Origin: Syntrophales bacterium
Lineage (GTDB): Bacteria > Desulfobacterota > Syntrophia > Syntrophales > PHBD01
DNA length: 64,000 bases
Direction: 5' to 3'
Assembly (NCBI GenBank): GCA_963668175.1
Contig: OY764159.1
Location: forward strand, 2,752,001 to 2,816,000
In this document: one piece after another, positions 44,450-62,419 of the stretch
Layout: each line of letters opens with the position of its first letter
How positions within the stretch are numbered: position 1 is the first letter of the stretch
The notes under the pieces: generated by a model
Seen by the model: the letters and a program-made list of their open reading frames with translations, nothing else
Told to the model about the DNA's origin: nothing
The model's database searches: none
Translations under genes and position numbers: made by a program

Positions 44450-44478
44450 TTGACAATATAACTATTATCCTCTATAAT
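44450..44478 (+). promoter_or_regulatory. Consensus sigma70 promoter of the toxin/immunity array
   Basis: TTGACA 44450-44455, 17 nt, TATAAT 44473-44478. Confidence 0.8.
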
Positions 44479-44593
44479 ATCGGTACGATAAAACACCTGA
44501 GCAAAATAGCAGGAAAGGCGTTCGGAACGATTCGTGTGATGAAGAGAGACGCAAGTTGAGGGAAAGGGTTCGGTCAGCGAAAGGCGATAAACG

Positions 44594-45148
44594 ATGAATT
44601 CTAAATTGAAGCGGCTGTTTGCATGGAAAAATCGAATTCTTAAGGGTTTCACGCTCTGGCCGACCATTGTGGTGCTATTGTATTTTTTAGAGAGGTGGGT
44701 TTTTTATTATCACGACTATGATTTTTTATTATTTGTCATATTTCTGTTCATATTTCCGGCAGTCTGTTTTATTTGTGCGCTGGTGTTGCTCGTAGTGAGA
44801 AAACCAAAGTCATCTTTATCCTTTCTTACACCCGCGTTGCTTGTGGTCTTTATGTTTTCTTCGTGGGGCGATCCTGTCAGAGATAATTACTACGCTTCAC
44901 GCCACTATGTTGAATTCCAAATCCAGAAAAGATTCTATTTCCCGGAGATGAACGAACCCGATAAGCTGCCCCCTTACAAAGAATGGCCTCTTAACAAGGC
45001 ACGGAGAACTTCAGAGTATACCATCATCTATAATTTGAAAGACTCTGTCGACGAAATAGAAAGACATAAGAAGTACATCAAGAATGGCTGCGGCTACAAT
45101 GTGACTGGAGTCGGCAAACACTTTTATATGCTGGCAGAATGTAAATAG
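44594..45148 (+). CDS. Putative immunity protein 1a (membrane-anchored)
   Basis: 184 aa, AT-rich, N-terminal TM segments plus soluble tail; paralog of 45285..45862. Confidence 0.65.
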   Translation: MNSKLKRLFAWKNRILKGFTLWPTIVVLLYFLERWVFYYHDYDFLLFVIFLFIFPAVCFICALVLLVVRKPKSSLSFLTPALLVVFMFSSWGDPVRDNYYASRHYVEFQIQKRFYFPEMNEPDKLPPYKEWPLNKARRTSEYTIIYNLKDSVDEIERHKKYIKNGCGYNVTGVGKHFYMLAECK

Positions 45149-45176
45149 AATGACAGAATAAAAGGAGGGCTGGAAG

Positions 45177-45281
45177 ATGGGACGGTACGGAACAGATCAT
45201 TTCTTTGTTAAAGATGAAGACAAAAAGGAAGTTGCGGCAAAGTATCTTAAAGACGCAAATGCACTCTGCGAAAGGCGATAA
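45177..45281 (+). pseudogene. 5' remnant of an effector-1 paralog
   Basis: MGRYGTDHFFVKDEDKKEVAAKYLKDAN is nearly identical to the start of 45894; similarity ends at 45261. Confidence 0.85.
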
Positions 45282-45284
45282 ACG

Positions 45285-45862
45285 ATGACTTCTAAATTGA
45301 GGCGTCTGTTTGCATGGAAAAATCGAATTCTTAAGGGTTTCACGCTTTGGCCGACCATCGTGATGTTGTCGTTTCTCTTGGAAGAGTGGGTATTTTATTA
45401 TCGCGACATTTATGATATCGGAATTCCTTTAGTCGTTATATTGGTGTTAATATTCCCGGCAGTCTGTTTTATTTGGGCGCTGGTTTTGCTCGGAAGAAAA
45501 AAAAACCGAAGTCGTCTTTATCCTTTCTTACCCCGGCATTGCCTCTGGTCTTTTTTTTATTTTCTCCATGGAGTGATCCTGTCAGAGATATTTTCTCCGA
45601 TTCGCGCCACTATGTTGAATTCCAAATCCAGAAAAGCTTTTATTTCCCGGAAATGAACGAACCCGATAAGCTGCCTCCCTACAAAGAATGGCTTATCAAA
45701 GAGCGTCATAATGTCTCTACGTATTCAATCGTTTACGATTCAAATGACTCCCTGAATGAGAGAGAAAAGAAAAAAGCAGAATTGCATGGCCCTCAACAAT
45801 GGGGTTACAGCATAAAGAAAGTTGGCAAACACTTCTACATGCTGCATGAATTTTATTATTAA
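45285..45862 (+). pseudogene. Putative immunity protein 1b, frameshifted at an A9 tract
   Basis: ORFs 45285..45656 and 45473..45862 together align with 44594..45148; frame switch at the A-run 45497-45505. Confidence 0.8.
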
Positions 45863-45893
45863 AACTGTTTTAAATTAGAAGGAGGGCTGGAAG

Positions 45894-47174
45894 ATGGGTA
45901 GGTACGGAACAGATCATTTCTTTGTTAAAGATGCAAACAAAAAGGACGTTGCGGCAAAGTATCTTAAAGACGCAAATGGAGACTATATTATGAACCGTTC
46001 AACCGGGCGGCCGTATGTCGTCCCGGCCGATTTTAATTTGGACGCAGTGATTGCAAAATACGAAGTCGATCCTCGGACGCTTCCCGATCTGGAAACAAGT
46101 ATGCAAGCACGCGGGGCGTCTTATGCAAAATTGTATGAGAATTTTCAACGCGGGCGGCCGGACGACTTGCAGAGATCCTATAATGGGAAAGTTGACGCCA
46201 CTTGGGTCAAGGACTTTCAGCCGGCAGCCAGCTACGTGTTCGGCGCGGCATGCGCCGCAGCAGGCTTACCCTTGTGGCAATGCAAAGCGGGCGGGGGGGG
46301 CTATAATCTTGGAACGAAAATCTTTGGAGATGGCCCCAAGAATAAAACGTCCGGCGAATTTGGCAACAATCCGGACAATGTTCAACACATCGAACAGGGC
46401 TACCGCAGTCAAACGTCTCCAGATGCTCCAAAGACGACCGGGAAATATGTTCCGGTGGAGGGGGGCGGCATCGATGCGGCGGTCAAAGCCGGGATCTATG
46501 CAGTCGAACCGGGCAATGTCCTTGGCGATATCGCAGCCAAATTTCATACCACCGTTCAAAAAATCATGGAGGCGAATCCCGATATCAAGAATCCGGATTC
46601 GATCCGCCCCGGACAGCGAATCGTATTGCCGAAAGACGACCCCTCCGGCCCCGCCGACAACAAGAAGGACCCCGATCCCGACCGGCAGGGCGCGACAGAC
46701 AAGGGAACGATCAATTCGCAACATAGCCAAAGCATCATCCATGATGGCGGGTTCACACAGATCGCCTCAAGCGCCGGCCCGGATGTTAGCGATAACACCG
46801 CTGCTTCCGCTCCTGCCGATGATGCGCCGGCGGGCTTTCCCGATGCTCCGTTGCGGCATGCGCTGGATGCGCTGGGCGTGAAGCCCCGCGATGTGCAATT
46901 CACCCCGGCGGAGGCGGACGATGAGAAAGAGACGCCGGACTCTTTCGACATCAGAGATAACGACACAGCGGAAAAAATCGGCTCTTATGCGGGAACCCCC
47001 ACCGGCTGCGAAATGACCGTGGGCGACAGGAAGGTCGTAATGGACCGGATGAGCGGTAATGACATTCACCTGCAAACGTATGCCAAAAACGACGATGGAG
47101 ATTTTGAACTCGTTGGGACAACGCGAATCGGCGACAACGACGGGATTACCGTGAGAAGGCCTTTTGCCGCATAG
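45894..47174 (+). CDS. Effector 1: Ntox44-like domain + LysM + conserved C-terminal domain
   Basis: F..G...D.QR....F...A.Y.FG....AAG.P......GG.Y...N...I..GY toxin-like motif; LysM YAVEPG..L..IA.KF......NP.I.NP..I.PGQ.I.LP; CTD 46848-47174. Confidence 0.7.
   Translation: MGRYGTDHFFVKDANKKDVAAKYLKDANGDYIMNRSTGRPYVVPADFNLDAVIAKYEVDPRTLPDLETSMQARGASYAKLYENFQRGRPDDLQRSYNGKVDATWVKDFQPAASYVFGAACAAAGLPLWQCKAGGGGYNLGTKIFGDGPKNKTSGEFGNNPDNVQHIEQGYRSQTSPDAPKTTGKYVPVEGGGIDAAVKAGIYAVEPGNVLGDIAAKFHTTVQKIMEANPDIKNPDSIRPGQRIVLPKDDPSGPADNKKDPDPDRQGATDKGTINSQHSQSIIHDGGFTQIASSAGPDVSDNTAASAPADDAPAGFPDAPLRHALDALGVKPRDVQFTPAEADDEKETPDSFDIRDNDTAEKIGSYAGTPTGCEMTVGDRKVVMDRMSGNDIHLQTYAKNDDGDFELVGTTRIGDNDGITVRRPFAA
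46848..47174 (+). repeat. Conserved C-terminal domain, copy 1 of 5
   Basis: PLRHA..ALG...EKIGS...TPTGCEMT.GDRKVVMD..SG.D..L.TYAKND.G...L.G.TRIGDNDG.T.RRPF. Confidence 0.95.
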
Positions 47175-47333
47175 TGCCGCGTCGTCCGGCGGACGCCGCC
47201 GGGCGGCGCACGGCAACGCCATGGCCGGTTAGCGGTTTTCCCCATTTGGGATACCCGGACGGCGGATGAAAGGAACCCGGGCCGGAAAAAAAGTGACGAG
47301 AGCGTGCAGGATACTAACTTTCGGAGGTGGAAG

Positions 47334-48179
47334 ATGGGACGTTTGAGGATGCCGGCCATATGCGCAGTAGCGCTTTTCATGACGATGTTGTTGTATTCGA
47401 CGGCGTCGGCCGCAGGCACCGACGTCGTTTACGTTGCGAAAGACATCGAATACGTCGGGAAAAAGACGTTACCTCTGCAGGAGGTCTTCGGCACGCCGGA
47501 GCCGTGGCATGTTACGGTCCAGGAAGATAAGGATATCGACGAATGGGATTACTTCATGGATCCCAAGGCCACGGACAGACCGGCGCGAATATGTTTCTGG
47601 GCCGATCCGGATAAGAAAGATCGGAAATGCGAAATTGCTGCGTTGAAATTATGCTTTCGTACCCCAAAGGGTCTCTCGTGCGAACCCACCTATACGTTCC
47701 AGTTTTTTGAGGACATGAAAGTTATCGATCTGAAAAAGGCCGGAAAGCCCCGCCAGGGCATTCTCTTTACCATAGTAAATAGAGGATATCACCTTAGCTG
47801 GGCGAGGCATCGACATCTCACCCTTTTCTCCATATGGGTTTACGACGAGAAAAAAGAAGCTTTCAAGAGAGCCCTTGAAGTCGCGCTCACGGAGCAGGGA
47901 GAGTTTAAATACGAGTTTCCCCCCTCCGCCAAGCTGGATGGCATCGCCGTCGGCGCCGACTTCTTTTGGGACATGAGCGATCCTGATGAGCATCGTTATG
48001 GTAAGCATTGGTATATCATCGAAATTTACAGATTGATGGGGAAGGGAATCTACAAATGGATCGGCGCGTATAGGACAGACAAAAAATACCAGAGTATGGC
48101 CGATAGCGAAGACAGTGTTATTGAACAGGAACTTGGCATCATCAGGAAGGTTGTAAGGAAAAAAGCAAAACAGAAATAG
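47334..48179 (+). CDS. Putative immunity protein 2 (exported)
   Basis: Sec signal peptide (ASA); ends 9 nt before effector 2. Confidence 0.65.
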   Translation: MGRLRMPAICAVALFMTMLLYSTASAAGTDVVYVAKDIEYVGKKTLPLQEVFGTPEPWHVTVQEDKDIDEWDYFMDPKATDRPARICFWADPDKKDRKCEIAALKLCFRTPKGLSCEPTYTFQFFEDMKVIDLKKAGKPRQGILFTIVNRGYHLSWARHRHLTLFSIWVYDEKKEAFKRALEVALTEQGEFKYEFPPSAKLDGIAVGADFFWDMSDPDEHRYGKHWYIIEIYRLMGKGIYKWIGAYRTDKKYQSMADSEDSVIEQELGIIRKVVRKKAKQK

Positions 48180-48188
48180 GAGTGAGAA

Positions 48189-49355
48189 ATGACAAGCAGC
48201 GAGTTCAAGCCGAGCAAATTCAAGGCAGAGGGAATTGAGGGGAACAGTATTGCAACATACTATGACTATGAGAACGGAACGAAACTGGAGATAAAGGGCG
48301 CGGTTCCTGCGGTGCGCTTTAATAACCCGGGCAATATCGCCTGCAATGATCTCAACGATAAGACGGGAAGATGGGTTTCAAGTCAGGGAGCGATCGGTTG
48401 CGCGCAAGGCCGGGCCGTCTTCCCGGACGTCGAGACGGGTTCTCAAGCGATGAGGAACAACCTTGAACGTAAATTTGGGGATTATACGGTTCGCGACATG
48501 CTCTTCGGCGAATACGAATACAACTATGGTCCCGATAAAGTGACACCCGTCAGCATCAAGAAAACGATCAGAGCCGGATACTGCCCCGAGTGGTACCCGG
48601 ACAAGAAGGGAGTCCTTCGGCGTCAGGATACGGAGTCTTACGCGCGGCTTCTCGAAAAGGGTTCCGATGCCAAGGAGACCGACGACCTCAAATCGTAGCC
48701 TATCAACGAACTCGGCAGCAAAATATTCGAGAAGGTTATTCAGAAGATGAAGACGCACGAAGGCTTCTTCAGCCCGCGTAATCAGGGAACGAAAACGTTT
48801 TACGAAAAAGATGGAAAAGTCATCAAACTGAACGAACTGGATAAGAATCTTCGGGAGGGCATTACTCCGGAAAAACCGACCATGATAGCGTATGCCAACG
48901 GCGTGCATACCGATGCGCCCGACGCGGGGAAGACTCTTGAGAATGTTGAAGCAGGATTATCTGGAAAACTGTTGCCCGCAAATATCGACACGGATGGAAC
49001 GGCCGGTTTGCTCGACGCCCCGAATGCTCCGTTGCGGCACGCGATGGCTGCTCTGGGATTGAAGCCCGAAGAAGTGCATATAACCCCGGCGGAGGCGGAC
49101 GATGAGAAGGAGACATCGGAATCCCTCGAGATCAGAGATAACGACACAGCGGAAAAAATCGGCTCTTATGCGGGAACCCCCACCGGTTGCGAAATGACCG
49201 CAGGCGACAGGAAGGTCGTGATGGACCGGATAAGCGGCAGCGACGTCAGCCTGCAAACATACGCCAAAAACGACGAAGGAGAATATGAACTCCTGGGGAC
49301 GACACGAATCGGCGACAACGACGGGGTGACCCTGCGACGGCCGTTTCCGGGATAG
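48189..49355 (+). pseudogene. Effector 2: NNPGN lysozyme-like domain + conserved C-terminal domain, interrupted by an in-frame TAG
   Basis: ORFs 48189..48698 and 48747..49355 share a frame and are separated only by TAG 48696-48698; RFNNPGNI...AVFP..E.G..A...L...Y.P...Y motif. Confidence 0.8.
49029..49355 (+). repeat. Conserved C-terminal domain, copy 2
   Basis: Same motif; high nucleotide identity to copies 1 and 3. Confidence 0.95.
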
Positions 49356-49554
49356 TGTTGTGATACAGGCGAATGAAGAGGAGGAAAAAATGGGGCCTGA
49401 AGAGGGAGACAAGACTCAAGAACGCATGAATGGTGAACCAAGGGAAAAAGAAGTCCCCAAAAGGGTTCTTCTAATGTGGAGACTGCTGTTGTTTGCTATC
49501 CTTGCTCTATTGTCATTACTCATGATTCAGATCTTTTATCGGTTCTGGTGTGTA

Positions 49555-49770
49555 TCGATGATACCAACGATAGAGCGACATGACGGGCGATATAGCGGCA
49601 ATCCATGTGAATATGCTAGAGACGTCGGATCACGGACATCGCTTGTATGAAAATTAAGGCACGTATCCAGACGGCTTTAAGGAGTGATCACTTTTATCGA
49701 CAAATCGATCTGCAGTGGTTCGCTATGATGTGCAAAGGATAATACATTTTTCGGGTCAAGCAACAATGGT
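49555..49770 (+). pseudogene. Decayed 3' remnant of an immunity-3 paralog
   Basis: GATGATACCAA..ATAGAGCG and CAAATCGATCTGCAGTGGTTC..TATG.TGTG blocks also occur at the 3' end of 50133..50789. Confidence 0.65.
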
Positions 49771-49842
49771 GCATGGGCATGCGTAATCCCGGTCATTGAT
49801 ATTCAGTGTATTGAAGAGAAGATTTAGGAAAGAGTGTAGAAA

Positions 49843-50073
49843 ATGAGTGGAGAGAAACAGACTACCATATGGGAACCAAAAACCTTTGATTGCATCAGAC
49901 AGAACAGTTCTATTTTTAAATCCGTTGCAGAACGGATAGGAATCCCCCCGGAAGCCCTCGCCGGCGCCATGGCAAGAGAGAATAACGCCTATAACCATCA
50001 TAGAGGCCGGGAAATATTCATGGACATATGGGCCTTAAAGTGTGTTCCGAACGTGGCGGCGTCATTTATTTAG
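49843..50073 (+). pseudogene. 5' remnant of an effector-3 paralog
   Basis: WEPKT.DCIRQNSSIFKSVA.R.GI..EALAGAMA.ENN.Y shared with 50877..52454; truncated at 76 aa. Confidence 0.85.
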
Positions 50074-50132
50074 GTTGCGGCAAGGGAGATTCACGGTAGG
50101 AGAAATCATAAAATCTCAGGGATGCCGAAATA

Positions 50133-50789
50133 ATGAAAATGAAGAAATCGCTGAAAGTTGTTCTGCTTTCGATAATAGGGGTCCTTTGGCTGGTCATCGT
50201 GTTGCTGTTGGCGCTTGTGACCGCCGTGGCCGATCATGAGATTGATCTTTACGCATTGTTAAGACCGCTCCCCAGCGATGACGAGATGATCGCGAATTTC
50301 TATGACAATAAGGATGACTTTGAGAAACTTGTCCAAATTTACTACACAGATCCGTCGAATCGATTTTATGGGTCTAAGGCGATGTCTACGCCGGAAGTGA
50401 AAGCCGTCATGAGGCGCGCAAAGGTCTATGGCATAGCAGGCGATGGGGATTTTTGGGTGCCTCCCGACCCTTACAATGAAGAGGCGCGCGATCGGAGTTT
50501 TCGTTCAGGTGAATTAGAAAGGCATCGTGACGGTATCGACTTTCATTACAAACATAAGCGCGTAACAGTCGGAATTGAGAAGTTCGACGATCTGCATAAA
50601 TATTACTATTACGCACCGATGATACCAAAAATAGAGCGCTACCCCGGCGAGCCGTACGATGTATTATTGACGCCTACTCATCATCATCGATTGTATAAAA
50701 GCCTGGACAGGTGGCCTGCCGATCTCCTCCCGCCCGATTGCGTTTACCGGCAAATCGATCTGCAGTGGTTCATTATGGTGTGTCGATAA
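50133..50789 (+). CDS. Putative immunity protein 3 (N-terminal membrane anchor)
   Basis: One TM helix, PSD.EMIA.F......FE.LV start and I...W C-terminal motif; directly upstream of effector 3. Confidence 0.65.
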   Translation: MKMKKSLKVVLLSIIGVLWLVIVLLLALVTAVADHEIDLYALLRPLPSDDEMIANFYDNKDDFEKLVQIYYTDPSNRFYGSKAMSTPEVKAVMRRAKVYGIAGDGDFWVPPDPYNEEARDRSFRSGELERHRDGIDFHYKHKRVTVGIEKFDDLHKYYYYAPMIPKIERYPGEPYDVLLTPTHHHRLYKSLDRWPADLLPPDCVYRQIDLQWFIMVCR

Positions 50790-50876
50790 TAATATTTTCA
50801 GAGCGTGCAACAATGGTTCACGGACATTTGTAAGATAAATTATGACGAAGCGAATTGGATGAAGGAGTTTGGAAAA

Positions 50877-52454
50877 ATGGCCGAAAATGAGAAGTATACC
50901 AAATGGGAACCGAAAACCATGGATTGCATCAGACAAAACAGTTCCATCTTTAAATCCGTTGCCGCCCGGATGGGAATCTCCGCGGAAGCCCTCGCCGGCG
51001 CCATGGCGAAAGAGAACAACCAATACCAACTCAATACAGCGGTGGAAGTATTCAAGGACAGATGGGCTTTAGGAACGATATCCGGTGAAATAGTCGACCA
51101 TGCTCAATGGTCGGCCCAATATGACGCGGTGAAGAAGTCGAACTGGATAGATAACGCAGACAGATTAAGAAAGATAAGAAACCCCATATTGGTTGACCTC
51201 GGCCCTTTCAACCTTCAGGGTGCAACCGCCATCCGGGCCTTGATTAGATATATCCAAGCCAATCCCCATTCGGATCCTTTTGATCTGAAACAGTATCAGG
51301 GAGACTATGCAAAATTCCTGTCCACCATAGCAGGTCCCGATGCGGCGCCGTGGAATACTCTGAACGCCGAAGAGAGCGTAAGGGTGAATGCAATCGTCTG
51401 GGGCATGCAGATAAAACAAGCCCAGGACTGGTTCGAAAAGAAGAAACGGGGCGACGAGCGGTTCGCTAAACTTTGGGACGGGAAGCCGCAGAAGGAAAAA
51501 GACGCATTCTACGCGCAGTGGTGCTTTTTCGGACCTCGAAAAATGGAAGAGAGGTTCGTGGATAATATTAACGACAGCAAGCATCGTGGGACATACAAAC
51601 CGGAACTCGGTGAAGGCGGTTCGGACGTTCATAAGAATGCGGGGGCTATCGGGATCGCGATGGACAATTTCGGCTACGCGGCTGAAGGCCAGAATTCAGA
51701 CTCGGAAAAGACGGCATCCGCCGCCGGCGCTCCCGCCTCCCCATCCAACGCACGTATTACATATAACACCGACGGCACGGTCACCGTCAACAAGGGCGGC
51801 ACGCTCTGGGAAATCTGCGAAGAGCAGAGGAAAAAGGGCAATCCGATCACCCCCGACGATTTGAGGTTGAAAAACAAGAACATCGAGGATGTGGACGATA
51901 CGAGGATTCCCGTCGGCACGAAATTGGTCATTCCCAGACGCCAAGAAGCTGACTCCGCCATTAGCACTGGCGACAAATCTAACGCCGCTGACTATCAGGG
52001 CCATCGTGAAGATCGTAGAAATCTTTTCGGCGGCAGCGATTCAAGCCGCGGAGATATTTACAATACGATTGAAAATGAAGATGACAATCCCCGGGTCATC
52101 TCTAGTGACCCTTCCGTCAGTTCTCCATTGCAGCACGTAATGGATGCGCTGGGAGTGGCGTCCAAAGATGTGCATTTAATCCCGGACGGGGACAATGAAA
52201 ATCCAATGCCGGGGTCCTACAGCATTATGGATAAGAGTACATCGAAAGAAATCGGTTCTTGTTTGATGACTACGACCGGTTGCGAAATGACCGCAGGCGA
52301 CAGGAAGGTCGTGATGGATAAGATAAGCGGCAACGACGTCAGCCTGCAAACATACGCCAAAAACGACGAAGGAGAATATGAACTCCTGGGGACGACACGA
52401 ATCGGCGACAACGACGGGATTACCGTGAGAAGGCCTTTTGCAGGGCTAGCCTGA
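50877..52454 (+). CDS. Effector 3: lysozyme-like domain + LysM-like domain + conserved C-terminal domain
   Basis: AAGGAG RBS and ATG 50877; A...GI..EALAGA.A.E ... D.GP.N motif; V.KG.TLW.I.....L...N.......IPVG.KLVIP; CTD 52125-52454. Confidence 0.7.
   Translation: MAENEKYTKWEPKTMDCIRQNSSIFKSVAARMGISAEALAGAMAKENNQYQLNTAVEVFKDRWALGTISGEIVDHAQWSAQYDAVKKSNWIDNADRLRKIRNPILVDLGPFNLQGATAIRALIRYIQANPHSDPFDLKQYQGDYAKFLSTIAGPDAAPWNTLNAEESVRVNAIVWGMQIKQAQDWFEKKKRGDERFAKLWDGKPQKEKDAFYAQWCFFGPRKMEERFVDNINDSKHRGTYKPELGEGGSDVHKNAGAIGIAMDNFGYAAEGQNSDSEKTASAAGAPASPSNARITYNTDGTVTVNKGGTLWEICEEQRKKGNPITPDDLRLKNKNIEDVDDTRIPVGTKLVIPRRQEADSAISTGDKSNAADYQGHREDRRNLFGGSDSSRGDIYNTIENEDDNPRVISSDPSVSSPLQHVMDALGVASKDVHLIPDGDNENPMPGSYSIMDKSTSKEIGSCLMTTTGCEMTAGDRKVVMDKISGNDVSLQTYAKNDEGEYELLGTTRIGDNDGITVRRPFAGLA
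52125..52454 (+). repeat. Conserved C-terminal domain, copy 3
   Basis: Same motif; followed by a 44-bp block (52449-52492) identical to 55369-55412. Confidence 0.95.
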
Positions 52455-52764: not shown

Positions 52765-54258
52765 TTGAAAACGAAAGCGATCTTGATAGTGCTGATCTGT
52801 ATTGCCGCCTGCGCCGGCTATCAACAACCTGCCAGGGCATCCGGGGACGCCGCCGTTACATGCCGGAGCGCCAAGGAGTGCGTCGATCGGGGAATTCGCA
52901 AATTCAATGAACGGCAGTACGACTCGGCCATCGCCTATTATACGCGGGCCATCGCGCTTGATCCCGAATATGCCGCCGCGTACGATCGCCGCGCGAATGC
53001 CCATGCCCTCAAACAGGACTATCGCAGCGCCATTGCCGATTATACCGAGGCCATTAGAATCGATCCCGGGTTTGCCGAGGCCTACCATGGGCGCGGGCTT
53101 GCCTACGCGAAAACAGGGGATAGCGACCTCGCCATTGCCGATTACACGGCGGCCATCGACCGCAAGTGGCGGGATGTCGTTCAGTCCTACTATTATCGCG
53201 GCAATGCCTATTATAATGTGGGGAAGAACGATCTCGCCGTTCGCGATTACGATGAAGTCCTTCGCATCGATCCTAAAGCTGCCAACGCCTGCTTCAATCG
53301 CGGCCTTGCATACAAGAGGATGGGGGACGACGCCAGGGCCGCTGCGGATTTCGACAGGGTGATCGCCCTCGATCCGAAACACGCGGAGGCGTACTATTGG
53401 CGCGGCGCTATCTTTCAGAAAAGAAAGGATTACGACCGTGCCGTCGCCGATTTCAGCCAGGCCCTTGCCGTCAATCCGCAGCACGCCAAAGCCCGTCTCG
53501 TCCGGGGGAATGCCTATGCCGAAAAAGGAGACTATAACACCGCCATTGCCGATTATACCCAGGTCATTCTGATGAATCCCGCTTTTGCAGATGCAAGTCT
53601 TAACCGCGGACGCGTTTACATGGAAACCGGGGACGATGCCAGGGCCGTTGCCGATTTCACAAGGATGATCACCCTCGACCCGAAGCACGCGGAGGCGCAC
53701 TATTTGCGCGGACGTATCTATCAGAAAAGAAAGGATTACGACCGTGCCATCGCCGATTTCAGCCAGACCATCGCCTTCAATCCGCAGCACGCGAAAGCCC
53801 GGCTCGCCAGGGGGAATGCCTATGCCGAAAAAGGCGACTATAACAACGCTATCGCGGATTATACCGAGGTCATCCGGATGAATCTTCCGGATAAGTACAA
53901 GGTGGGGGTTATCGTTAATCGCGGCCTTGCATACGAGAAAATGGGGGACGATGCCGGGGCCATTGCCGAGTTCACGAGCGCCATCGCCCTCGATCCGGAA
54001 AATGCGGCCCCATACTATGCCCGCGGGCGCAGCTATCTTAAAATATGGGATTTCGACCGCGCCTTTACGGATTTCAATAAGGCCATTGCCGTCAATCCAC
54101 AGTATCGGGAAGCTTACATGGCCCGCGGCGCTTCCCTCCTGGGGAAGGGGAAATGTGCCGAGGCATGGCGGGACGTGAGGCACGCAGAAGGACTGGGCGA
54201 GATACCAAATCCAAACTTCTATAAGTTCCTCAACGAAAAATGCCCGCCGCAACAGTAG
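52765..54258 (+). CDS. Exported TPR-repeat protein (putative immunity/partner of effector 4)
   Basis: AGGAGG RBS and TTG start; signal peptide; 34-aa AY..RG.AY...G....AIADY..AI..DP repeats. Confidence 0.9.
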   Translation: MKTKAILIVLICIAACAGYQQPARASGDAAVTCRSAKECVDRGIRKFNERQYDSAIAYYTRAIALDPEYAAAYDRRANAHALKQDYRSAIADYTEAIRIDPGFAEAYHGRGLAYAKTGDSDLAIADYTAAIDRKWRDVVQSYYYRGNAYYNVGKNDLAVRDYDEVLRIDPKAANACFNRGLAYKRMGDDARAAADFDRVIALDPKHAEAYYWRGAIFQKRKDYDRAVADFSQALAVNPQHAKARLVRGNAYAEKGDYNTAIADYTQVILMNPAFADASLNRGRVYMETGDDARAVADFTRMITLDPKHAEAHYLRGRIYQKRKDYDRAIADFSQTIAFNPQHAKARLARGNAYAEKGDYNNAIADYTEVIRMNLPDKYKVGVIVNRGLAYEKMGDDAGAIAEFTSAIALDPENAAPYYARGRSYLKIWDFDRAFTDFNKAIAVNPQYREAYMARGASLLGKGKCAEAWRDVRHAEGLGEIPNPNFYKFLNEKCPPQQ

Positions 54259-54516
54259 CTCTTTTTAGGCGATGACGGAAAATCGGTTCAGAGGATCGTG
54301 AACGAAACCCGATTGCAACGATGGCAGAGAATGAAGAACGGGTACGATGAAATCGTCATCGGCAATCTCAAGCGGGGAGAAATCGGTACAGGGATTGCCA
54401 GTCAAGAAGCGTCTTGCGCGTTTGGGACAATGACGACGACCTGTCCATTGCCCAAAAGAATTTGAGAGAAAAAGCATTATCTTTCACGGAAGAACAGAGA
54501 CCGGAGGGTTCGAAGA

Positions 54517-55374
54517 ATGGCAGCAGAAAACAAGAAGAACGATAATGAAAAGACGTTAAAAAAGGGATTTGAAATATTTAATTTTGTGAAAGATATCGCA
54601 AGCAAGACCGGTGACATCCTTGCGACCGGAAATTCCACCGTAAAATTAATCAAAATGGGAGTGGACGGTTCAATGACGGTACTACAGAGTATTCCAAAGT
54701 CGCTACTGGAAGGAGAATTAGTTCCTATTGGCCTTGTAAAAGAACTTGGCACATGGGGTGCTTCCTCCGCAGTCGGCGAGACGATCATTGTAACGGCGGG
54801 CGGTTTGGCATCCGCCGGAGCAGCGACCATTTTAGGGGCGGCAACGCTGACCGCAGCGGCAGGCGCGCTATACGGTGCTTTATGGCAAAAGGTGTATGAG
54901 CATTCGAAGGAGAACCCTATATGGGAAGGCGCGCCCGAGATGAAATACGACGGTATGTATCTGCATGATCCCTCCAAATCCGGAAACGAGATACCAAATG
55001 AAGATGCCATTATGAAGAACTATTCCCTGAACGATCCCGGCAAGCCATTGAAGCATGCATTGACCGCGCTGGGATTGAAACCCGACGAGGTGCATCTAGC
55101 TCCGGCGGCGAGCAATGGGAATTCGACGTCGGAAGCCCTCGCTATAAGGGATAAGGACACATCGGAAAAAATAGGCTCCTGCGTGATGACGCCTGGCGGC
55201 TGCGAAATGACCGCGGGCGACAGGAAGGTCGTGATGGACCGGATAAGCGGCAGCGACATTCATCTGGAAACGTATGCCAAAAACGACGATGGAAAATATA
55301 AACTCCTGGGGCAGACAAGAATCGGCGACAACGACGGGATCACCGTGAGAAGGCCGTTTACGGGGCTCGCCTGA
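54517..55374 (+). CDS. Effector 4: glycine/alanine-zipper hydrophobic domain + conserved C-terminal domain
   Basis: GGLASAGAATILGAATLTAAAGALYGAL segment; CTD 55045-55374. Confidence 0.7.
   Translation: MAAENKKNDNEKTLKKGFEIFNFVKDIASKTGDILATGNSTVKLIKMGVDGSMTVLQSIPKSLLEGELVPIGLVKELGTWGASSAVGETIIVTAGGLASAGAATILGAATLTAAAGALYGALWQKVYEHSKENPIWEGAPEMKYDGMYLHDPSKSGNEIPNEDAIMKNYSLNDPGKPLKHALTALGLKPDEVHLAPAASNGNSTSEALAIRDKDTSEKIGSCVMTPGGCEMTAGDRKVVMDRISGSDIHLETYAKNDDGKYKLLGQTRIGDNDGITVRRPFTGLA
55045..55374 (+). repeat. Conserved C-terminal domain, copy 4
   Basis: Same motif. Confidence 0.95.
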
Positions 55375-55604
55375 TGCCGGGACAGGCACAGGCCGTCTCA
55401 ATATTCGCCGCGACACTGCATGAAAATTCGGTTCATGGAGGATGAAACGTGAAGCAGCCGTTTCCCGAATTCGGGGTACCGCATCCCCTCGTACAGGATG
55501 CGGTACGTAATGATCTATTGTTTCTTCTCATAGTGTTGGGAATTCCGGGAATTCGCGCAGTCGGAATGCTATGCTGGCATTTCAGGATACGGGGAGGCAC
55601 GTCA

Positions 55605-56507
55605 ATGCCGGCTTTTAAACCGTTTACATGGATTGCGGTTCTCATCGTCATCGCGGTTATTCCCGCGCCTGGATTTGCCGCGCCGCATATCGTTCCGCTT
55701 GACTCCGTGTTCAAAGTGACAGAGGTGCCCTACGAAGGCGGCGAATTAATGATGCCCGGCAAGGATAGCAGCGGCAAAAAGAACGGCGATGGGGAGGAAT
55801 CCTTTTCTCCCGGCTGGAAGAAGCTCTTTCTTAGCGTACCGGGCAGCAAGCGATCATACTTGTTGGACGGAACATGCGTCCATTATGATCGGAACGCAAT
55901 CGACCTCGGCGACGGGCGCATCGTTATGGCGTGCCAATCGGGAGGCAACCATTGCTGCAGCACATACGTGAGCCTGCTGAAGGACAGTAAAAAAGGCACG
56001 CTGAAGGTCGCCGGTTCGAGAACGATCATTCATCCCGAGCTGGGCATAGACAAAGAAAGCATCGGGCCTGTCGATTCCCGGGGAAACCTGAGCATCGAAG
56101 TTCACGGATTTACCGATCGATACGACGACGATATCGAAAAAGCGAGCCACGAACCTTCTTTCATCTATTACATCAAGATCCTTAAGACCGGCCATGTGGC
56201 CGTCGACAGGGACGTTAAAGCGTACGAGAACATCATCGCGAAGCTCAAAACATCGTTGTCGAAATCGTACGATTTCGAGATGTATGTGCAGCTTGTCTTT
56301 TATAACCGTCTTCTCGATCTGAAACTTTCCGAAAACGCCTATCTGAGCAAAGCCTCGGCGTCCGAAAAAGGCGTTGCCGCCCGCGGCGTCAAGTGGATAT
56401 TTGAAGAAATGCCGTTTCTCAGGATTATCAACGACGATGATGGTTTTGCTCTGAAGCCGACCGCCCCGATCTCAGGCCATGACGCTGTTCAAAAAAAGAA
56501 ACGCTGA
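55605..56507 (+). CDS. Exported hypothetical protein (possible orphan immunity protein)
   Basis: GGAGG RBS and ATG 55605; signal peptide (GFA); SGG.HCC motif; no effector downstream. Confidence 0.65.
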   Translation: MPAFKPFTWIAVLIVIAVIPAPGFAAPHIVPLDSVFKVTEVPYEGGELMMPGKDSSGKKNGDGEESFSPGWKKLFLSVPGSKRSYLLDGTCVHYDRNAIDLGDGRIVMACQSGGNHCCSTYVSLLKDSKKGTLKVAGSRTIIHPELGIDKESIGPVDSRGNLSIEVHGFTDRYDDDIEKASHEPSFIYYIKILKTGHVAVDRDVKAYENIIAKLKTSLSKSYDFEMYVQLVFYNRLLDLKLSENAYLSKASASEKGVAARGVKWIFEEMPFLRIINDDDGFALKPTAPISGHDAVQKKKR

Positions 56508-56791
56508 ACAGTGAGGGCATTCGCCCTGCATGGACAATTTAGACCATTTGCGCGGACACGACGGCCCGGGAAAGGGCAGGGCTGGTAGCGTTCCAAGGCA
56601 AAGAGCAAACAACGCCGACTGCGCCCGCAATGCCTTTCTGACGGGCGTTACGATAGATTGAGGAATGCCGGCCGGGAGAGTCGGAAAATCCGCCGCCATT
56701 TAATCGGCCGGCCGATCCCTACCCAAAAGCCGGTGCAATTGACATGCTGAAATCGATCCTTACATTAAGGGTAAGGGGAAGGAGGTGCGTT

Positions 56792-57301
56792 ATGATCGAT
56801 TCAGCGAATGCCATCTCCACGAATCCGGTTTTAGCCGCGATCGCCGCAAACGCCCTGCAAATACGAGCGATTGCCGATCTCCCTCCAACTTACAGTGCGC
56901 AGTTTTCGGATACGGTGACTGTTTCCCGGGCGGCAACCGATTTGGCCGATGCCCTGAAGACTCAAAATACCGACGATTTTGCCCGGCAATTGGCGAACGC
57001 TGCCGATCAGGCGGCAGCGGGAACAACTGCGACGCAGGATCAGGTGCAGGCGAACGATCGACTTTCTCTGGACACGGCTGAGCAATTTCTGGATACGGTG
57101 GCGGCTGAAGACGTTTTGGCAAACGACCTCCAGGCGCAGAAAGACAGGGATTATGCCCAACTGTTGGCGGATATTGCGAATCTGACGGCAACGGAAACGG
57201 TCGCGACCCAAAATATGGAGATCGACAGCGCCGCTTATTCCATGGCGTCGGCGAACAGATACCGGCAGAGAAGGGTCTCTCTGAAGGACCTGAAAATCTA
57301 A
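56792..57301 (+). CDS. Hypothetical Ala/Asp/Gln-rich protein
   Basis: GGAGG RBS; possible TTGACA-16-TACATT promoter at 56739-56766; DTVTVS.AA motif and internal repeat. Confidence 0.6.
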   Translation: MIDSANAISTNPVLAAIAANALQIRAIADLPPTYSAQFSDTVTVSRAATDLADALKTQNTDDFARQLANAADQAAAGTTATQDQVQANDRLSLDTAEQFLDTVAAEDVLANDLQAQKDRDYAQLLADIANLTATETVATQNMEIDSAAYSMASANRYRQRRVSLKDLKI

Positions 57302-57614
57302 AACGTGTGCCCCGCTTGTTAGGAAATTCGGGCAAAGGGGAGAACGCTGTGCCCGTTTCGTCTCATTCCGTATATCCTTCCCGTAGCTATTACTTCGATA
57401 TCTAACGGATATCCGCGACAACCGGTTCGTGAATCCGGATCTGCATGGGAAATCCGACGGCAGGAACGGCCGCGCAAGACGGCCGGAAATAGGACGGCAA
57501 CGATGATCGCGGCAAGGGACGGCAGACCGGCATTGCAAAGTGCGGCAGGAAGGGCAGGGCGACGGGGAATCGGTAAAACGGTGTTGCGTTCGGGGAAAGC
57601 CCGGCATGACGGGT

Positions 57615-57648
57615 AAAAAAAGAGGCCGGGGGTTTAGCCCCGGCCTCG
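57615..57648 (-). terminator. Rho-independent terminator of the flavocytochrome gene
   Basis: A-tract then GAGGCCGGGG-gtttag-CCCCGGCCTC. Confidence 0.8.
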
Positions 57649-57673
57649 ATGCAGCATAAGTTAGGTTAAAGGA

Positions 57674-59230
57674 TCAGGCTTTCTCTTTGGCTGCGTTCGT
57701 TCCGGCGATGCGGCCGAAGACGATGGCATCCGGCGTTGCGTTGCTGCCCAGGCGGTTCGATCCGTGGACGCCGCCCACGACTTCGCCCGCCGCGTAGAAG
57801 CGCGGAATGGGCTTGCCCCAGATGTCGATGACCTGGGCCTGCTCGTTGATCCTCAGGCCGCCCATGCAGTGATGCACGGCGGGCCACTGGGGCAGCGCGT
57901 AGAACGGGCCTTCGACAATGGGTATCATCTTGTTCGTGATGGGCTTGTTGAAATCGGGGTCCTTGCCGTCGGCAAGGTACTGGTTGTGTTTCTTGATCGT
58001 CTCCTCGAACGCATCGGTGGGTATGCCGATCTTGCCCGCCAGCTCCTTCAGGGAATCGGCCTTGACGAAGCGGCCGTTATCCAGGCCCCTCTTCAGCTCT
58101 TCCGGCGTGCCGAGCAGCGGCGCGATTTTCTCGCAGAAGATGGAGTACGTCGGCTTCGAGCCCGTGGCGATGGCGGCGCGCGAGCAGACGTCGCGGCGCT
58201 CCAGCTCGCTCACATAGCGCTTCCCGTTCCTCGCGACATAGACGATCCCGGCGCCGGGGCCCCGGAAGGGGAACACGGCCGACGAATCGAGGATGCCGGT
58301 TTCCGGCTCCGCGAAGGGATAGAGCTGGATGAAGGCGAGCTGCAGGGAATCGGCGCCGATGGCCTGGGCGAAACGGATCGTCTCGCCGGTCGCGCCCTTG
58401 TGGTTCGTGCAGTTGACCGAAGGCGTGACGCTCGGGTTGAAATCCTGCCGCATTTTGATGTCCTGGCCGAATCCGCCCGATGCATAGACCAGGGCGTACT
58501 TGACCTTGATGTTGGATTTCCTGCTTCTCGTGGCCACTTCCACACCGAGGACCGGGCCTTCGACATCCTTTCGCCAGACCCAGTTCACCGTGGTTCCCAG
58601 CCTGATCTTCGTGCCGCTCGCCTCCGCCATTTTCTTCAGGGCTTCGGTGAAACCGCGGCCTACGCCGTCAACGCATGTCCGGGCGCGGTATGCCGTGTGC
58701 CCGCCCGCGCGGCTTGCGTTCTCACGCATCTTGAGGCCGCCCTGATCGATCATCCAGTTCAGGGTGTCGGGTGCGCCTTCGACCATGATCTTCACCAGGG
58801 CGGGGATGTTGTAGTAGTCGCCGCCCTTGAGGGTGTCTTCGAAATGCTGTTTCGTGCTGTCCTCGCCGAGGTTCAGCTTCTGGCGGATATGGAATTTGTC
58901 GTCGGACGACGCGTATTCGCCGCCGTTGATGATCGAGTTGCCGCCGTAGGTAGGCATCTTTTCGAGGATGACGACTTTCCGTCCCCGTGACGCCGCTTCC
59001 GCCGCGGCCGCGAGGCCCGCGAAACCGGAACCGATGACGAGCACGTCCACCTCTTCATCCCATTTCGCGGGGAGCTTCCTGATCGCGGCACCCGCCGTTC
59101 CCGGCATGGCCATGTTCAGGGCCAGGCCTCCGCCCGCCGCCATGGCGCCCAGGGCGACTGCCCCTTTCAGAATCGAACGGCGGTTTACGCCTTTTCCTTC
59201 GAGTATTTCTTTCTTTTCTTCCTTCTTCAT
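57674..59230 (-). CDS. Tat-exported flavocytochrome c flavin subunit (fumarate/urocanate reductase family)
   Basis: NRRSILK twin-arginine signal; DV.VIGSG.AGL.AA; HH.MGG..I; AAGEV.GGVHG.NRLG. Confidence 0.93.
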   Translation of the reverse strand: MKKEEKKEILEGKGVNRRSILKGAVALGAMAAGGGLALNMAMPGTAGAAIRKLPAKWDEEVDVLVIGSGFAGLAAAAEAASRGRKVVILEKMPTYGGNSIINGGEYASSDDKFHIRQKLNLGEDSTKQHFEDTLKGGDYYNIPALVKIMVEGAPDTLNWMIDQGGLKMRENASRAGGHTAYRARTCVDGVGRGFTEALKKMAEASGTKIRLGTTVNWVWRKDVEGPVLGVEVATRSRKSNIKVKYALVYASGGFGQDIKMRQDFNPSVTPSVNCTNHKGATGETIRFAQAIGADSLQLAFIQLYPFAEPETGILDSSAVFPFRGPGAGIVYVARNGKRYVSELERRDVCSRAAIATGSKPTYSIFCEKIAPLLGTPEELKRGLDNGRFVKADSLKELAGKIGIPTDAFEETIKKHNQYLADGKDPDFNKPITNKMIPIVEGPFYALPQWPAVHHCMGGLRINEQAQVIDIWGKPIPRFYAAGEVVGGVHGSNRLGSNATPDAIVFGRIAGTNAAKEKA

Positions 59231-59956
59231 GCAAACCTCCTGCCTTTCAATCGATGTTGGTGGTGAATGATCCCGCCTGCGCGGCGGTAAGTCTAATCCG
59301 TTGGTGAACCATTCTGATTGCCGGGGTATCTCCTTTCGTTGACGATGATTGCTTCAATGCTTGCGCGATTGATCCATCCGTCGCTCCGTCTGCGGTCCCC
59401 TCATGAAACAGCCACCCGCTATTCACCACCACCGCAAAGAGGTTCTTTGCTGCCGATGCCCCTTTGAAAACGTCCCCGCGCGGATGCCCCTAACATCCCC
59501 GCGGCCCTGAAATGATCTCACGGGTAAAAAAGCGGTCCCGGAAAACACAAAACCCCGCCTCTGGAAAGAGAGACGGGGTTTCGAATATTCCTGCATAACG
59601 CGCTTTCGTAAAGACGGTTCTGGAGCCGGTTAACGATGTCCACTTTAATGCCTTTTCTGACATATTAAAGCAAAATGCACAAAATTGCCAAGACAATTTT
59701 TCGCCCCCTGCCGGCGTGACCGGCGAAAAAGAGCGATCCATTTTCCGGCCGGTTCGTTACAATTGCCGATCATACGGGACTTTCGAAGGCGGGTACGGCC
59801 AAGGCCGGACGTAACCGGTTATCCGGGAAACCGCGAAAACGTCCGGTTCCATCTATCGCTTCAAAAACAGAAATGCTGGAATATTGTAATGCAAGATGAT
59901 TCTTCTGCAATTCCCTTAATATCAGTATGTTATGATTATATTATACCATATTCTTA

Positions 59957-59985
59957 TTGACATCTATAGGAAAATATATTATAAT
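59957..59985 (+). promoter_or_regulatory. Consensus sigma70 promoter of the fifth immunity/effector pair
   Basis: TTGACA 59957-59962, 17 nt, TATAAT 59980-59985. Confidence 0.8.
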
Positions 59986-60055
59986 TTCGGCATGATAACA
60001 CAGAGCGGCCGGACAGGACAGAAGGCGTTCGGACCGTTGGCTGTCTAAAAGGGGG

Positions 60056-61168
60056 ATGCACAAGATGAACGGAAGAAATACAGGGGCGAACAGGATTATA
60101 CCAATCATTTTGATCGTATGGGTATGCATCGCTGTGTCCGCAGGCGACGCAGGATCAACCGACAGCTATTTCCCTTGCCCCGTTTATGTCAACGCAGGTC
60201 TCAAGGGCAAGCTCCGTCACGTGAAAAAATGGGGTTATATGGACATCCATGAAAAGATCGTCATCAAGCCGCGTTTTAAGGAAGCGTGGAGTTTCAGCGA
60301 AGGGCTGGCCCATGCGATGAATGCCAGATATAAATACGGCTTCATCGATCTTAAGGGGAATTGGGCCGTCAAGCCGCAATTCGACAACGTGAGAAGTTTC
60401 CGTGAGGGCATGGCGGCGGTTTCAATCAAAAGGAAATATGGGTTTGTCGATAAAACGGGCCGGCTCGTCGTCCCGCTTGTCTATGATAACGCTATGGACT
60501 TCCGCGAAGGCCTGGCCCTAGTTGCGGACAACGACAAATGGGGTTTTGTAGATAAAACGGGCCGGGTGGTCGTCCCGCTCATATACGACGAACATGTCTC
60601 GTGCTTCCGCGAAGGTCTGGCCTGTTTTAAGGAAAACAAGAAATACGGTTTCATGGATAAAAAAGGGCAGGTTGTCATTCCGGCGCAGTTCGACAGGGTC
60701 TTGTATGGCTTCAGCGAAGGCCTGGCAGGCGTTCAGATTAACGGGAAATGGGGTTTCATCGACCGCTTCGGCCGGATCGTCATCGAGCCGAAATTCGACA
60801 GGGCCGGGAGGACGGTCATGTTCCGGGAAGGGCTTGCCGCCGTGAAAATCGACGGCAAGTGCGGCTTCATCGACAAGACGGGAGCTATCCGGATCAAGCC
60901 CGATTACAGTTATGCGTTCGACTTTTCCGAGGGGTTCGCGACGGTGACTTTTGATGATGGTACGGACGCTTATATCGACAAATCGGGAAACATCGTCATC
61001 AGGATTGAGGAAAATAAGGGGACTGCATATTGGGAAGGCGATTTCCGCAAAGAAGGCGTAGCGAAAATATGTTTTAACGATTCCAAATATTCGGCAGAGG
61101 ATTGCGGATTCATCAATCGTCAGGGGATATTTGTCATTCAACCTAAATACAATTCCATTCATAATTAA
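60056..61168 (+). CDS. Exported WG-repeat protein (putative immunity protein 5)
   Basis: Signal peptide; repeated F.EGLA.V....K(W/Y)GF.DK.G..VI.P.(F/Y)D units. Confidence 0.9.
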   Translation: MHKMNGRNTGANRIIPIILIVWVCIAVSAGDAGSTDSYFPCPVYVNAGLKGKLRHVKKWGYMDIHEKIVIKPRFKEAWSFSEGLAHAMNARYKYGFIDLKGNWAVKPQFDNVRSFREGMAAVSIKRKYGFVDKTGRLVVPLVYDNAMDFREGLALVADNDKWGFVDKTGRVVVPLIYDEHVSCFREGLACFKENKKYGFMDKKGQVVIPAQFDRVLYGFSEGLAGVQINGKWGFIDRFGRIVIEPKFDRAGRTVMFREGLAAVKIDGKCGFIDKTGAIRIKPDYSYAFDFSEGFATVTFDDGTDAYIDKSGNIVIRIEENKGTAYWEGDFRKEGVAKICFNDSKYSAEDCGFINRQGIFVIQPKYNSIHN

Positions 61169-61192
61169 TTTCTTTGACCAAGGAGGAATAGA

Positions 61193-62419
61193 ATGGCGGG
61201 AACAATTTACAGCAATTTGCAGACCCAAAAACAGAAAGACTGGTACCGTGGCATTGCTCTATTCGGAGACAAGAAAGAAATACCGCTGGATGTGATCAAT
61301 GCCGTGCTCCTGCTCGGGAATCTCGAATCTCGCGGTTTTAGACCGGAGGCGGAGAGCGGTACCGGGGCTTCGGGACTGTTTCAGTATATGGAAGGAAGGT
61401 GGACGGACATCACAGACAAAAATAAAAAGAATAAATTGTATTACGATACTTACAACCAAATGATCGATTGGGGATACAATCCAGCGAGACGCGAGAGGGA
61501 GAATCCGGCCGATCAGGTAATCGTCGTATACGCGGAGGTAGCGAGTTATACGAAGGAATTCAATTCAGCGACTAAACCCCGTGGAAAACGCAACTCGGAT
61601 TATAAGAATGCGTGGAACGCTTACGATAAGGCATGTAAAGGATTGGGGAAGGACTGCCCCACCGATCCCTATGAGAGATACATCCTGTTTGTCCAGGCGG
61701 CTCACCACGGACCGAGCAATATTCAGGAAGTGATAACCGGCTGGAAAAAGCAAATACTACCCAATATCAAGGACAATTTAGAATTTCTGAAATCGAAACG
61801 CAAAGAATGGAACCTGAAGGTCTCCCAGGACGATACGGAGGCTGAAACCGACAAGGTTGCCGAGGCGGCAGAACGGGATTCCGGGCGGACAGCGTCGGCT
61901 GCGCAACCGGACGATGCGTATTCGACCGAAGACAGGAAGAGAAAAGACCTCGCTGCGGGAGACGACGCCGAAGCTGAAACGGCGAGAAGAGGCGACGATG
62001 CGGGCGACCGGGATACCGACGATTCCATGAACAGACAGGGCGGCGTTCCCGCGACGGCCGCGAACGGTTCGTCCGTGGGCATTCCCGATGCTCCATGGCG
62101 GCACGCGATGGACGCGCTCGGAGTAACGTCCAGTGAGATACATTTAACCCCAGCGGATAACAGGAATTTAACGTCGGACTCCTTCGAGATCAGAGATAAC
62201 GACTCATCGGAAAAGATCGGTTCTTGTATGATGACTCCCACCGGCTGCGAAATGACAGCGGGCGACAGGAAGGTCGTGATGGATAAGATAAGCGGCAACG
62301 ACGTCAGCGTGGAAACATACGCCCAAAACGACGATGGAGAATATGAACTCCTGGGGACGACAAGAATCGGCGACAACGACGGCATAACGGTGAGAAGGCT
62401 GTGGACGGGGTTTGCGTGA
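61193..62419 (+). CDS. Effector 5: SLT/lysozyme-like domain + conserved C-terminal domain
   Basis: AAGGAGG RBS; ES..F.P.A....GA.GLFQ transglycosylase motif, AHHGP; CTD 62093-62419. Confidence 0.75.
   Translation: MAGTIYSNLQTQKQKDWYRGIALFGDKKEIPLDVINAVLLLGNLESRGFRPEAESGTGASGLFQYMEGRWTDITDKNKKNKLYYDTYNQMIDWGYNPARRERENPADQVIVVYAEVASYTKEFNSATKPRGKRNSDYKNAWNAYDKACKGLGKDCPTDPYERYILFVQAAHHGPSNIQEVITGWKKQILPNIKDNLEFLKSKRKEWNLKVSQDDTEAETDKVAEAAERDSGRTASAAQPDDAYSTEDRKRKDLAAGDDAEAETARRGDDAGDRDTDDSMNRQGGVPATAANGSSVGIPDAPWRHAMDALGVTSSEIHLTPADNRNLTSDSFEIRDNDSSEKIGSCMMTPTGCEMTAGDRKVVMDKISGNDVSVETYAQNDDGEYELLGTTRIGDNDGITVRRLWTGFA
62093..62419 (+). repeat. Conserved C-terminal domain, copy 5
   Basis: Same motif, ending VRRLWTGFA. 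Confidence 0.95.

Follow-up and report, generated by a model that had tools for sequence, protein, structure and literature searches.

An undescribed C-terminal domain that defines a small family of polymorphic toxin-like effectors in a Syntrophales bacterium

Several described systems in which bacterial toxins are assembled from exchangeable parts bear on the locus reported here, and each is cited from the part of the source that was available. Polymorphic toxin systems have been described together with the motifs of the Ntox44 family (PF15607) (PMC3482391); effectors of the Xanthomonas type IV secretion system (T4SS) carry XVIPCD (PF20410), a domain with a Gln-rich tail and a core of two helices and three strands that binds VirD4 (PMC8740702); the head of one T4SS effector is common to RTX proteins and one VgrG (PMC6759196); and type VI secretion cargo is composed of an N-terminal delivery domain followed by a C-terminal toxin (PMC12135965). 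The present analysis concerns a window of 64,000 nucleotides (positions 2,752,001-2,816,000 of contig OY764159.1, a closed Syntrophales genome of 4.57 Mb, single contig, 100% complete by markers), in which five genes on the plus strand end in a common domain of about 110 residues. The assembly consists of the chromosome contig alone, so that any plasmid would fall outside it. We regard this element as a C-terminal domain without previous description, by which a small polymorphic effector family is defined: the tag is new, the kind of toxin is known, and the lineage is a single small one. New antibacterial effectors, and the way in which secretion machines select their cargo, are best traced through delivery domains, and the shared domain already leads to several putative toxin and immunity families without assignment.

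The shared C-terminal domain

The five copies of the domain in the window, each at the end of a putative effector, are the following.

46836-47171, plus strand: domain copy 1, effector 1
49017-49352, plus strand: domain copy 2, effector 2
52116-52451, plus strand: domain copy 3, effector 3
55036-55371, plus strand: domain copy 4, effector 4
62081-62416, plus strand: domain copy 5, effector 5

These copies are 58-79% identical, and copies 2-5 match the first at 63-77% identity, or 58-69% when flanks are included, while the N-terminal parts of the same five proteins are mutually unrelated (best E 0.093). A first-pass annotation of the window had proposed that the five genes share just their C-terminal 108 or so residues, with a recognizable motif, and the alignment over about 110 residues bears this out. 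Its count of five copies holds for the window; four further copies elsewhere in the genome had been overlooked. By tblastn, in which the window copies score E 1e-42 or better and all other matches form a background at E>0.07, the genome contains nine copies, spread over three sites. The window accounts for five of them, genome 2143522-2153093 for three and genome 2819877-2821208 for one, which is split by an insertion of about 180 bp. The insertion (genome 2820840-2821030) has inverted ends and resembles a miniature inverted-repeat element; P0032, a protein of another class, ends at a similar point.

Beyond this genome the family is very narrow, comprising about twenty metagenomic proteins and no other searched genome. 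A word-based protein search gave 22 matches among 242 candidates, and a profile search of 1.84 billion representatives gave 16 matches, 14 of them genuine; P0030 and P0031 were rejected as carriers because they are repeat proteins. In the 29 carriers (P0001-P0029, several from this genome and 3 of them fragments), the domain match stops 0-3 residues short of the C-terminus without exception (29/29), in keeping with the prediction that the domain is always C-terminal. No copy turned up in 8 other family genomes, in 200 genomes from the order and 400 from the phylum (overlapping samples), in 60 viral contigs (0/60) or among the 72 candidates of a first scan of a genome collection (0/72), where a single later match proved to be a kinase of another phylum and was rejected; a metagenome collection yielded two short contigs with the domain. 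No match exists in Pfam, NCBIfam, PHROGs, PDB sequences (0) or the ESM Atlas, as expected from the earlier statement that the domain has no assigned family. The literature gave no account of such a domain or of toxin-first effectors of this type, although an unnamed domain is unsearchable by name and subscription journals were mostly uncovered.

At the DNA level the copies agree at 75-90% and look homogenised. The ratio of nonsynonymous to synonymous substitution (dN/dS) is below 1 in 28 of the 28 pairs formed by the eight unsplit genome copies (pairs that are not independent), with a median of 0.36 over these copies and 0.21 over the last 60 columns, and the DNA similarity between copies mostly ceases at the stop codon. 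The shared domain is a protein domain under purifying selection, as opposed to a DNA repeat that happens to be translated. A tree was built from 28 domain copies, without the split copy, the two metagenome loci, four fragments and one truncated protein; on it the class of the N-terminal part requires 20 changes, against a mean of 19.5 for shuffled labels. In its shared domain, effector 1 is closer to an SLT effector (88%) than to its own paralog (78%). It follows that toxin and tag have been freely reshuffled or homogenised.

An AlphaFold2 model from eight copies (pLDDT 77) consists of one helix (residues 4-13) and an eight-strand meander. With this model Foldseek found nothing at E<=0.001 in the PDB or BFVD, and the best VIA match was 3msw (Z 6.4, root-mean-square deviation 2.8, 85 aligned), phage spike chains reaching Z 4.7-4.8; all of these lie at the level of common sheets. 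The proposal that the domain is a spike-derived prism was rejected after it gave no profile match to the two spike-like genes of the type VI cluster described below. No XVIPCD chain appears in the output of these searches, a negative that leaves room for an XVIPCD fold.

Effector heads and upstream partners

The genes of the array and the remnants between them are listed below in window coordinates.

44594..45148, plus strand: partner 1a, 184 aa, two or three transmembrane segments and a soluble C-terminal part
45177..45263, plus strand: remnant of an effector 1 start, 29 codons, 86% identical
45285..45862, plus strand: partner 1b, a paralog of 1a whose reading frame is shifted in an A-run near 45500
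45894..47174, plus strand: effector 1, 426 aa, with a diverged Ntox44-like domain over residues 1-180 or so, then LysM (202-246), an acidic linker and the shared domain
47334..48179, plus strand: partner 2, 281 aa, signal-peptide-like N-terminus, no family
48189..49355, plus strand: effector 2, NNPGN-type N-terminus and shared domain, in-frame TAG at 48696-48698
49390..50046, plus strand: decayed extra pair, truncated transmembrane-anchored open reading frame (ORF) and fragment of an effector 3 N-terminus (49840-50046, 62% identical)
50133..50789, plus strand: partner 3, 218 aa, N-terminal transmembrane anchor, no family
50877..52454, plus strand: effector 3, 525 aa, helical N-terminus without family, LysM, linker, shared domain
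52765..54258, plus strand: TPR protein with a signal-peptide-like N-terminus, 259 bp upstream of effector 4
54517..55374, plus strand: effector 4, 285 aa, with a hydrophobic segment rich in Gly/Ala around residue 90, then the shared domain
55605..56507, plus strand: signal-peptide-like ORF, 300 aa, no family, orphan or candidate partner of effector 4
60056..61168, plus strand: partner 5, 370 aa, signal-peptide-like N-terminus and 8 WG repeats
61193..62419, plus strand: effector 5, 408 aa, SLT/lysozyme-like N-terminus, acidic linker, shared domain

Across the carriers, BLAST grouping and Pfam delimit about nine N-terminal classes (the class labels are ours): three SLT types, NlpC/P60, Ntox44-like, NNPGN, a glycine-rich type with LysM, the effector 3 type and the effector 4 type. 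The diversity of toxin-type heads that had been anticipated is thus present, the Pfam cut-off for SLT being passed by the effectors at genome 2146594 and 2151897 and that for NlpC/P60 by P0015; none of the five window effectors itself exceeds any toxin-family cut-off (0/5). The earlier family calls for three of these hold by more indirect routes. The N-terminal domain of effector 1 resembles P0036 (35%), which passes Ntox44 at 30.4 bits (cut-off 24); effector 2 belongs to a class matched at 0.95, by features, to clusters that include the 'structural protein P5 family', which is the basis of the NNPGN assignment; and effector 5 reaches E 0.035 with SLT, under the cut-off, and E 5e-4 with endolysin, its family retaining the ES, GLFQY and HH motifs. 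LysM was found, as annotated, in effectors 1 (45894) and 3 (50877). The start of effector 3 is the ATG at 50877, as supported by P0018, and its model is too poor to use (pLDDT 44). Effector 4, whose N-terminus has no feature beyond its Gly/Ala-rich hydrophobic segment, has homologs in P0014 and P0027. A lysozyme-like head in effector 3 and a pore-former in effector 4 are candidate resemblances.

The relatives of two of these heads lie in another setting. The N-terminal domain of effector 1 also resembles the head of a 1754-aa RTX protein, and in a plasmid search it matched 32 records, among them the head of a 1947-aa RTX protein of Ralstonia and, in Rhizobium etli, an RTX gene split by an insertion sequence that stands behind HlyB, HlyD and a small membrane gene; assignment of the latter match to the Re78 type VI locus was rejected, since it adjoins HlyB/HlyD. 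One distant homolog of effector 3 lies near an RTX-activating acyltransferase gene. That these domains recur in type I/RTX contexts, where a small membrane gene stands upstream of them, suggests that they are mobile warheads. The corresponding plasmid and phage searches were blank for effectors 2, 4 and 5, two SLT effectors and partner 2. P0035-P0038 join Ntox44-like heads to long Pro/Ser-rich tails without family and are possibly another carrier of the same warhead.

The five window partners are mutually unrelated by sequence, as had been noted from the first. Judged by peak 12-residue Kyte-Doolittle hydropathy, which is a heuristic and not a signal-peptide predictor, the partners have a hydrophobic N-terminal or transmembrane stretch (2.7-3.5), whereas the effectors peak at 0.8-1.3, apart from effector 5, where an internal helix near residues 30-42 reaches 2.15; this agrees with the first-pass view of envelope-targeted partners and effectors without signal peptide. 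Its further claim, that a partner precedes each effector, is upheld in part: upstream genes are present, but that of effector 1 is frameshifted near 45500 and that of effector 4 is ambiguous, the partner being either the TPR gene upstream or the ORF at 55605.

The partner family tracks the class of the putative toxin, with duplicated partners and toxin remnants (45177, 49840). A transmembrane partner family precedes both Ntox44-like effectors; partner 1a, which is 64% identical to the gene at genome 2142921, upstream of the second of these, may be a spare or cross-protecting immunity-like gene of this class. WG-repeat genes lie upstream of both SLT-c effectors (in the window and at genome 2819877), with a third in locus L019, and the SLT-a effector has two partners that are 81% identical. 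In Rahnella a homolog of the SLT-a partner lies directly before a PAAR gene and near an ImcF gene, and the Hymenobacter homolog has no such PAAR/ImcF-type context. A complex prediction for effector 5 (residues 1-211) with its WG partner scored 0.28, against a mark of 0.32, controls not being folded.

Effector 2 had been annotated as a single ORF, which its internal TAG contradicts. The same TAG recurs in contigs from the short reads of two runs, both made on one sample that may be the source of the window; uninterrupted homologs exist (P0004, P0010, P0016, P0023), and read-through by pyrrolysine was rejected, there being no such tRNA among the 50 found. The gene is therefore broken in this strain.

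Effector 5 lies 5 kb from the main array behind two unrelated genes, an Ala/Asp/Gln-rich ORF without family (56744-57301) and a Tat-signal flavocytochrome-type oxidoreductase (57674-59230). The 269 bp upstream of the two WG-SLT pairs are 85% identical and include a TTGACA-type promoter (window 59790-60055; genome 2818274-2818542), so that pair and promoter have moved together. The second array (genome 2140691-2154243) is flanked by an XRE-type helix-turn-helix gene and a MerR/excisionase-like gene and contains an AT-rich leader of 147 bp in duplicate, as well as short hairpin repeats of the GTCCCCCGCATGGGGGA type. PEP-CTERM-like exported proteins were seen by eye near it and elsewhere (genome 2157742-2160483, 2111124, 2133320, 3096758), as was, in window 1-25000 and some 20 kb before the first array, a prophage-like block with capsid-, tail- and amidase-like genes.

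Secretion machines and possible routes of export

Family searches for secretion machines, in each of which the positive controls responded, gave no match to a phage or extracellular contractile injection sheath in the genome and a single secretin, encoded together with PilB/PilT-type ATPases in a pilMNOPQ operon. The only contact weapon or injection machine found is a type VI cluster at genome 156457-183562 with Francisella-like features. TssB, TssC, TssE and TssK exceed their cut-offs, TssF, TssG, TssL, TssM and TssJ/IglE match more weakly, and an IglI-family TssA, ClpB/V, PAAR and a DUF3540-like gene are also present. The VgrG is short (173 aa) with a weak Francisella-type match, and the 541-aa hub-position and the Hcp-position genes, without family match, were assigned by position; on this footing the cluster is complete. 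Weak IglH/IglJ matches and a separate hub-position gene occur in the cluster, which also carries genes for an adenylation-like protein, a radical SAM protein and a methyltransferase, together with an anti-sigma pair. In the order survey, 36 of 200 other genomes had a TssC match, 8 of them in a cluster of the same type. A search for SLT in nine genomes with type VI clusters listed strong housekeeping-type matches and one fragment, judged from the matches by themselves.

Built upon the directly established domain, its position, the selection on it, the shuffling, the pairing and the machine inventory, the reading that we consider probable is one of toxin-immunity pairs with a common C-terminal tag. 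Effectors would be made in the cytoplasm without signal peptide and in a beads-on-string layout, with a toxic domain of 130-290 residues first, LysM in some cases, then an acidic linker and last the shared domain; the toxic domains would mostly be cell-wall hydrolases or membrane-active helices, delivered to the envelope of neighbouring cells. The shared domain would be an address label read by a single export machine, with the consequence that any toxin recombining onto it would join the arsenal, and the upstream partner, in the producer's envelope, would neutralise its own class when a sister cell delivers the toxin. As the route we favour the type VI system by elimination, with slightly less than even confidence, since it is the only machine of this kind found in the genome; the domain might then dock on the tube, the hub or the short spike. 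The fullest form of this proposal, a C-terminal universal loading tag of a Francisella-like type VI system in a free-living anaerobe, with warheads captured from type I/RTX systems, seems possible but rather doubtful.

Several observations weigh against toxin-immunity pairs served by the type VI system. C-terminal tags are typical of type I and type IV systems. Within the order, eight further genomes have this type of cluster (TssC 84-93% identical, two of them single-contig), and none of the eight has the domain, co-occurrence being judged here with one domain-bearing genome. There is no effector near the cluster, its own 635-aa last gene is without the domain, no upstream sequence or promoter is common to it and the arrays, and the domain has no profile similarity to its two spike-like proteins. 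Effectors 3 and 4 belong to no family, and two of the nine effectors are broken. The delivery domains of MIX, FIX, RIX and PIX effectors are N-terminal (WHIX can be flanked), as far as the available text of PMC12135965 goes, and the present domain is strictly C-terminal. In effector 1 the DxK and GNxxxG residues that the available part of PMC3482391 gives for Ntox44 are missing; since the partner of this effector is also membrane-bound, an envelope target appears likelier for it than the predicted RNase role.

Among the alternatives, release of the toxins by lysis or in vesicles, as for bacteriocins, with the domain serving as a receptor binder or for crossing the outer membrane of close relatives, is unlikely, although it survives best. 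It would account for the lack of a machine linked to the arrays and for the confinement of the domain to one lineage, as expected of a kin-specific receptor binder; to judge from the model, the single exposed beta-sheet could join a barrel protein, and the window also contains a prophage-like region that includes lysis-type genes. However, no lysis gene or SOS-type layout was seen at the three sites, and colicin-type uptake domains are usually N-terminal or central.

Somewhat less likely again is that the domain is the coupling-protein signal of a type IV system that resides on an unassembled plasmid or was recently lost, leaving the chromosomal pairs as orphans. The parallel with T4SS effectors drawn in the first-pass annotation stands as regards gene layout, immunity upstream, toxin first and a tag of about 110 residues last, with mostly cell-wall toxins, as in X-Tfe effectors (PMC8740702, in the part available), and warheads are common to RTX and T4SS carriers (PMC6759196, likewise); moreover, two effectors and two partners are broken. 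The parallel fails at the machine: VirD4/TraG/TrwB, VirB4 and VirB10 were not found in the single, 100% complete contig (0 matches to PF02534, PF12696, PF10412, PF19044 and PF03743, plasmids being outside the assembly). Seven effectors are intact and the domain is under purifying selection. As already remarked in that annotation, XVIPCD motifs are missing: PF20410 does not match the window effectors at E<=0.1, and the Gln-rich tail was not seen in any of six domains checked (6/6 with one Gln in the last 40 residues); across the genome PF20410 was blank, but there the positive controls were silent too. The lack of a match and of the tail, together with the lack of VirD4, VirB4 and VirB10 in the closed genome, argues that the domain is not XVIPCD.

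Still less probable is export by an atypical ABC/type I exporter, for which the domain would replace the RTX block, or through the flagellar export gate. Homologs of effector 1 do form the heads of RTX proteins next to HlyB/HlyD, the signals of type I substrates are located at the C-terminus and are not cleaved off, and FlhA is present in the genome. Flagellar export signals, however, are N-terminal, no ORF contains RTX repeats, HlyD is below its cut-off (best 51 bits against 209), and the best HlyB-like match was dismissed, as it sits among lipid A genes and resembles MsbA. Finally, a non-weapon origin, as a recently amplified recombination cassette or a module that anchors the cell's own wall-remodelling enzymes, is very improbable: the copies are homogenised in appearance and toxicity is predicted only, but low dN/dS, similarity that mostly ends at the stop codon, effectors without signal peptides for reaching their own wall, Ntox44-like and glycine-rich heads that are not housekeeping and class-specific duplicated partners and remnants all speak against it.

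Comparison with known systems

Compared with X-Tfe/X-Tfi pairs, the pairs described here are alike in the upstream envelope immunity gene, the N-terminal toxin that is often a peptidoglycan hydrolase, the lack of a signal peptide, the single C-terminal domain of about 110-120 residues and the warheads shared with RTX proteins, within what the available text of PMC8740702 covers. The two domains have no sequence match, and the model of the present one shows one helix and eight strands, against two helices and three strands in XVIPCD. The same swapping of heads as seen here is illustrated by the effector of PMC6759196, of which part was available. RTX proteins of the FrpD/FrpC type, Ralstonia QIK21120 and the Rhizobium etli Mim1 pRetMIM1f locus have the same gene order and C-terminal targeting, and their heads share homology with effector 1's N-terminal domain (31-37%); however, they possess nonapeptide repeats and HlyB/HlyD and extend to 1700-2000 residues, whereas the present effectors, of 285-525 residues, have neither.

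The MIX, FIX, RIX, PIX and WHIX effectors resemble the present family as polymorphic orphan pairs marked by one non-structural domain (PMC12135965, available part). The type VI cluster of this genome differs in its Francisella-like build, short VgrG and IglE/IglI-like parts. A 2023 review describes T6SS-ii as exclusive to Francisella (PMC10433429, in the part available); the cluster is called Francisella-like here by gene content, without a tree that places it in T6SS-ii. Should the domain serve this cluster, type VI secretion would have a tag at the C-terminus, and the cluster would be a Francisella-like system that fights bacteria in an anaerobe; the customary order of type VI cargo would then be reversed, and the subtype would have an antibacterial arsenal outside Francisella. 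Should another route be used, the domain would point to a path of export or uptake that has yet to be identified.

In common with polymorphic toxin systems, as set out in the available part of PMC3482391, the arrays place variable toxin-like domains on a constant, putative trafficking module and contain adjacent immunity-like genes and leftover cassettes. Relative to that arrangement the Ntox44-like member here is without the canonical motif and is accompanied by a membrane partner, and the order is reversed, with the toxin first and the immunity gene upstream.

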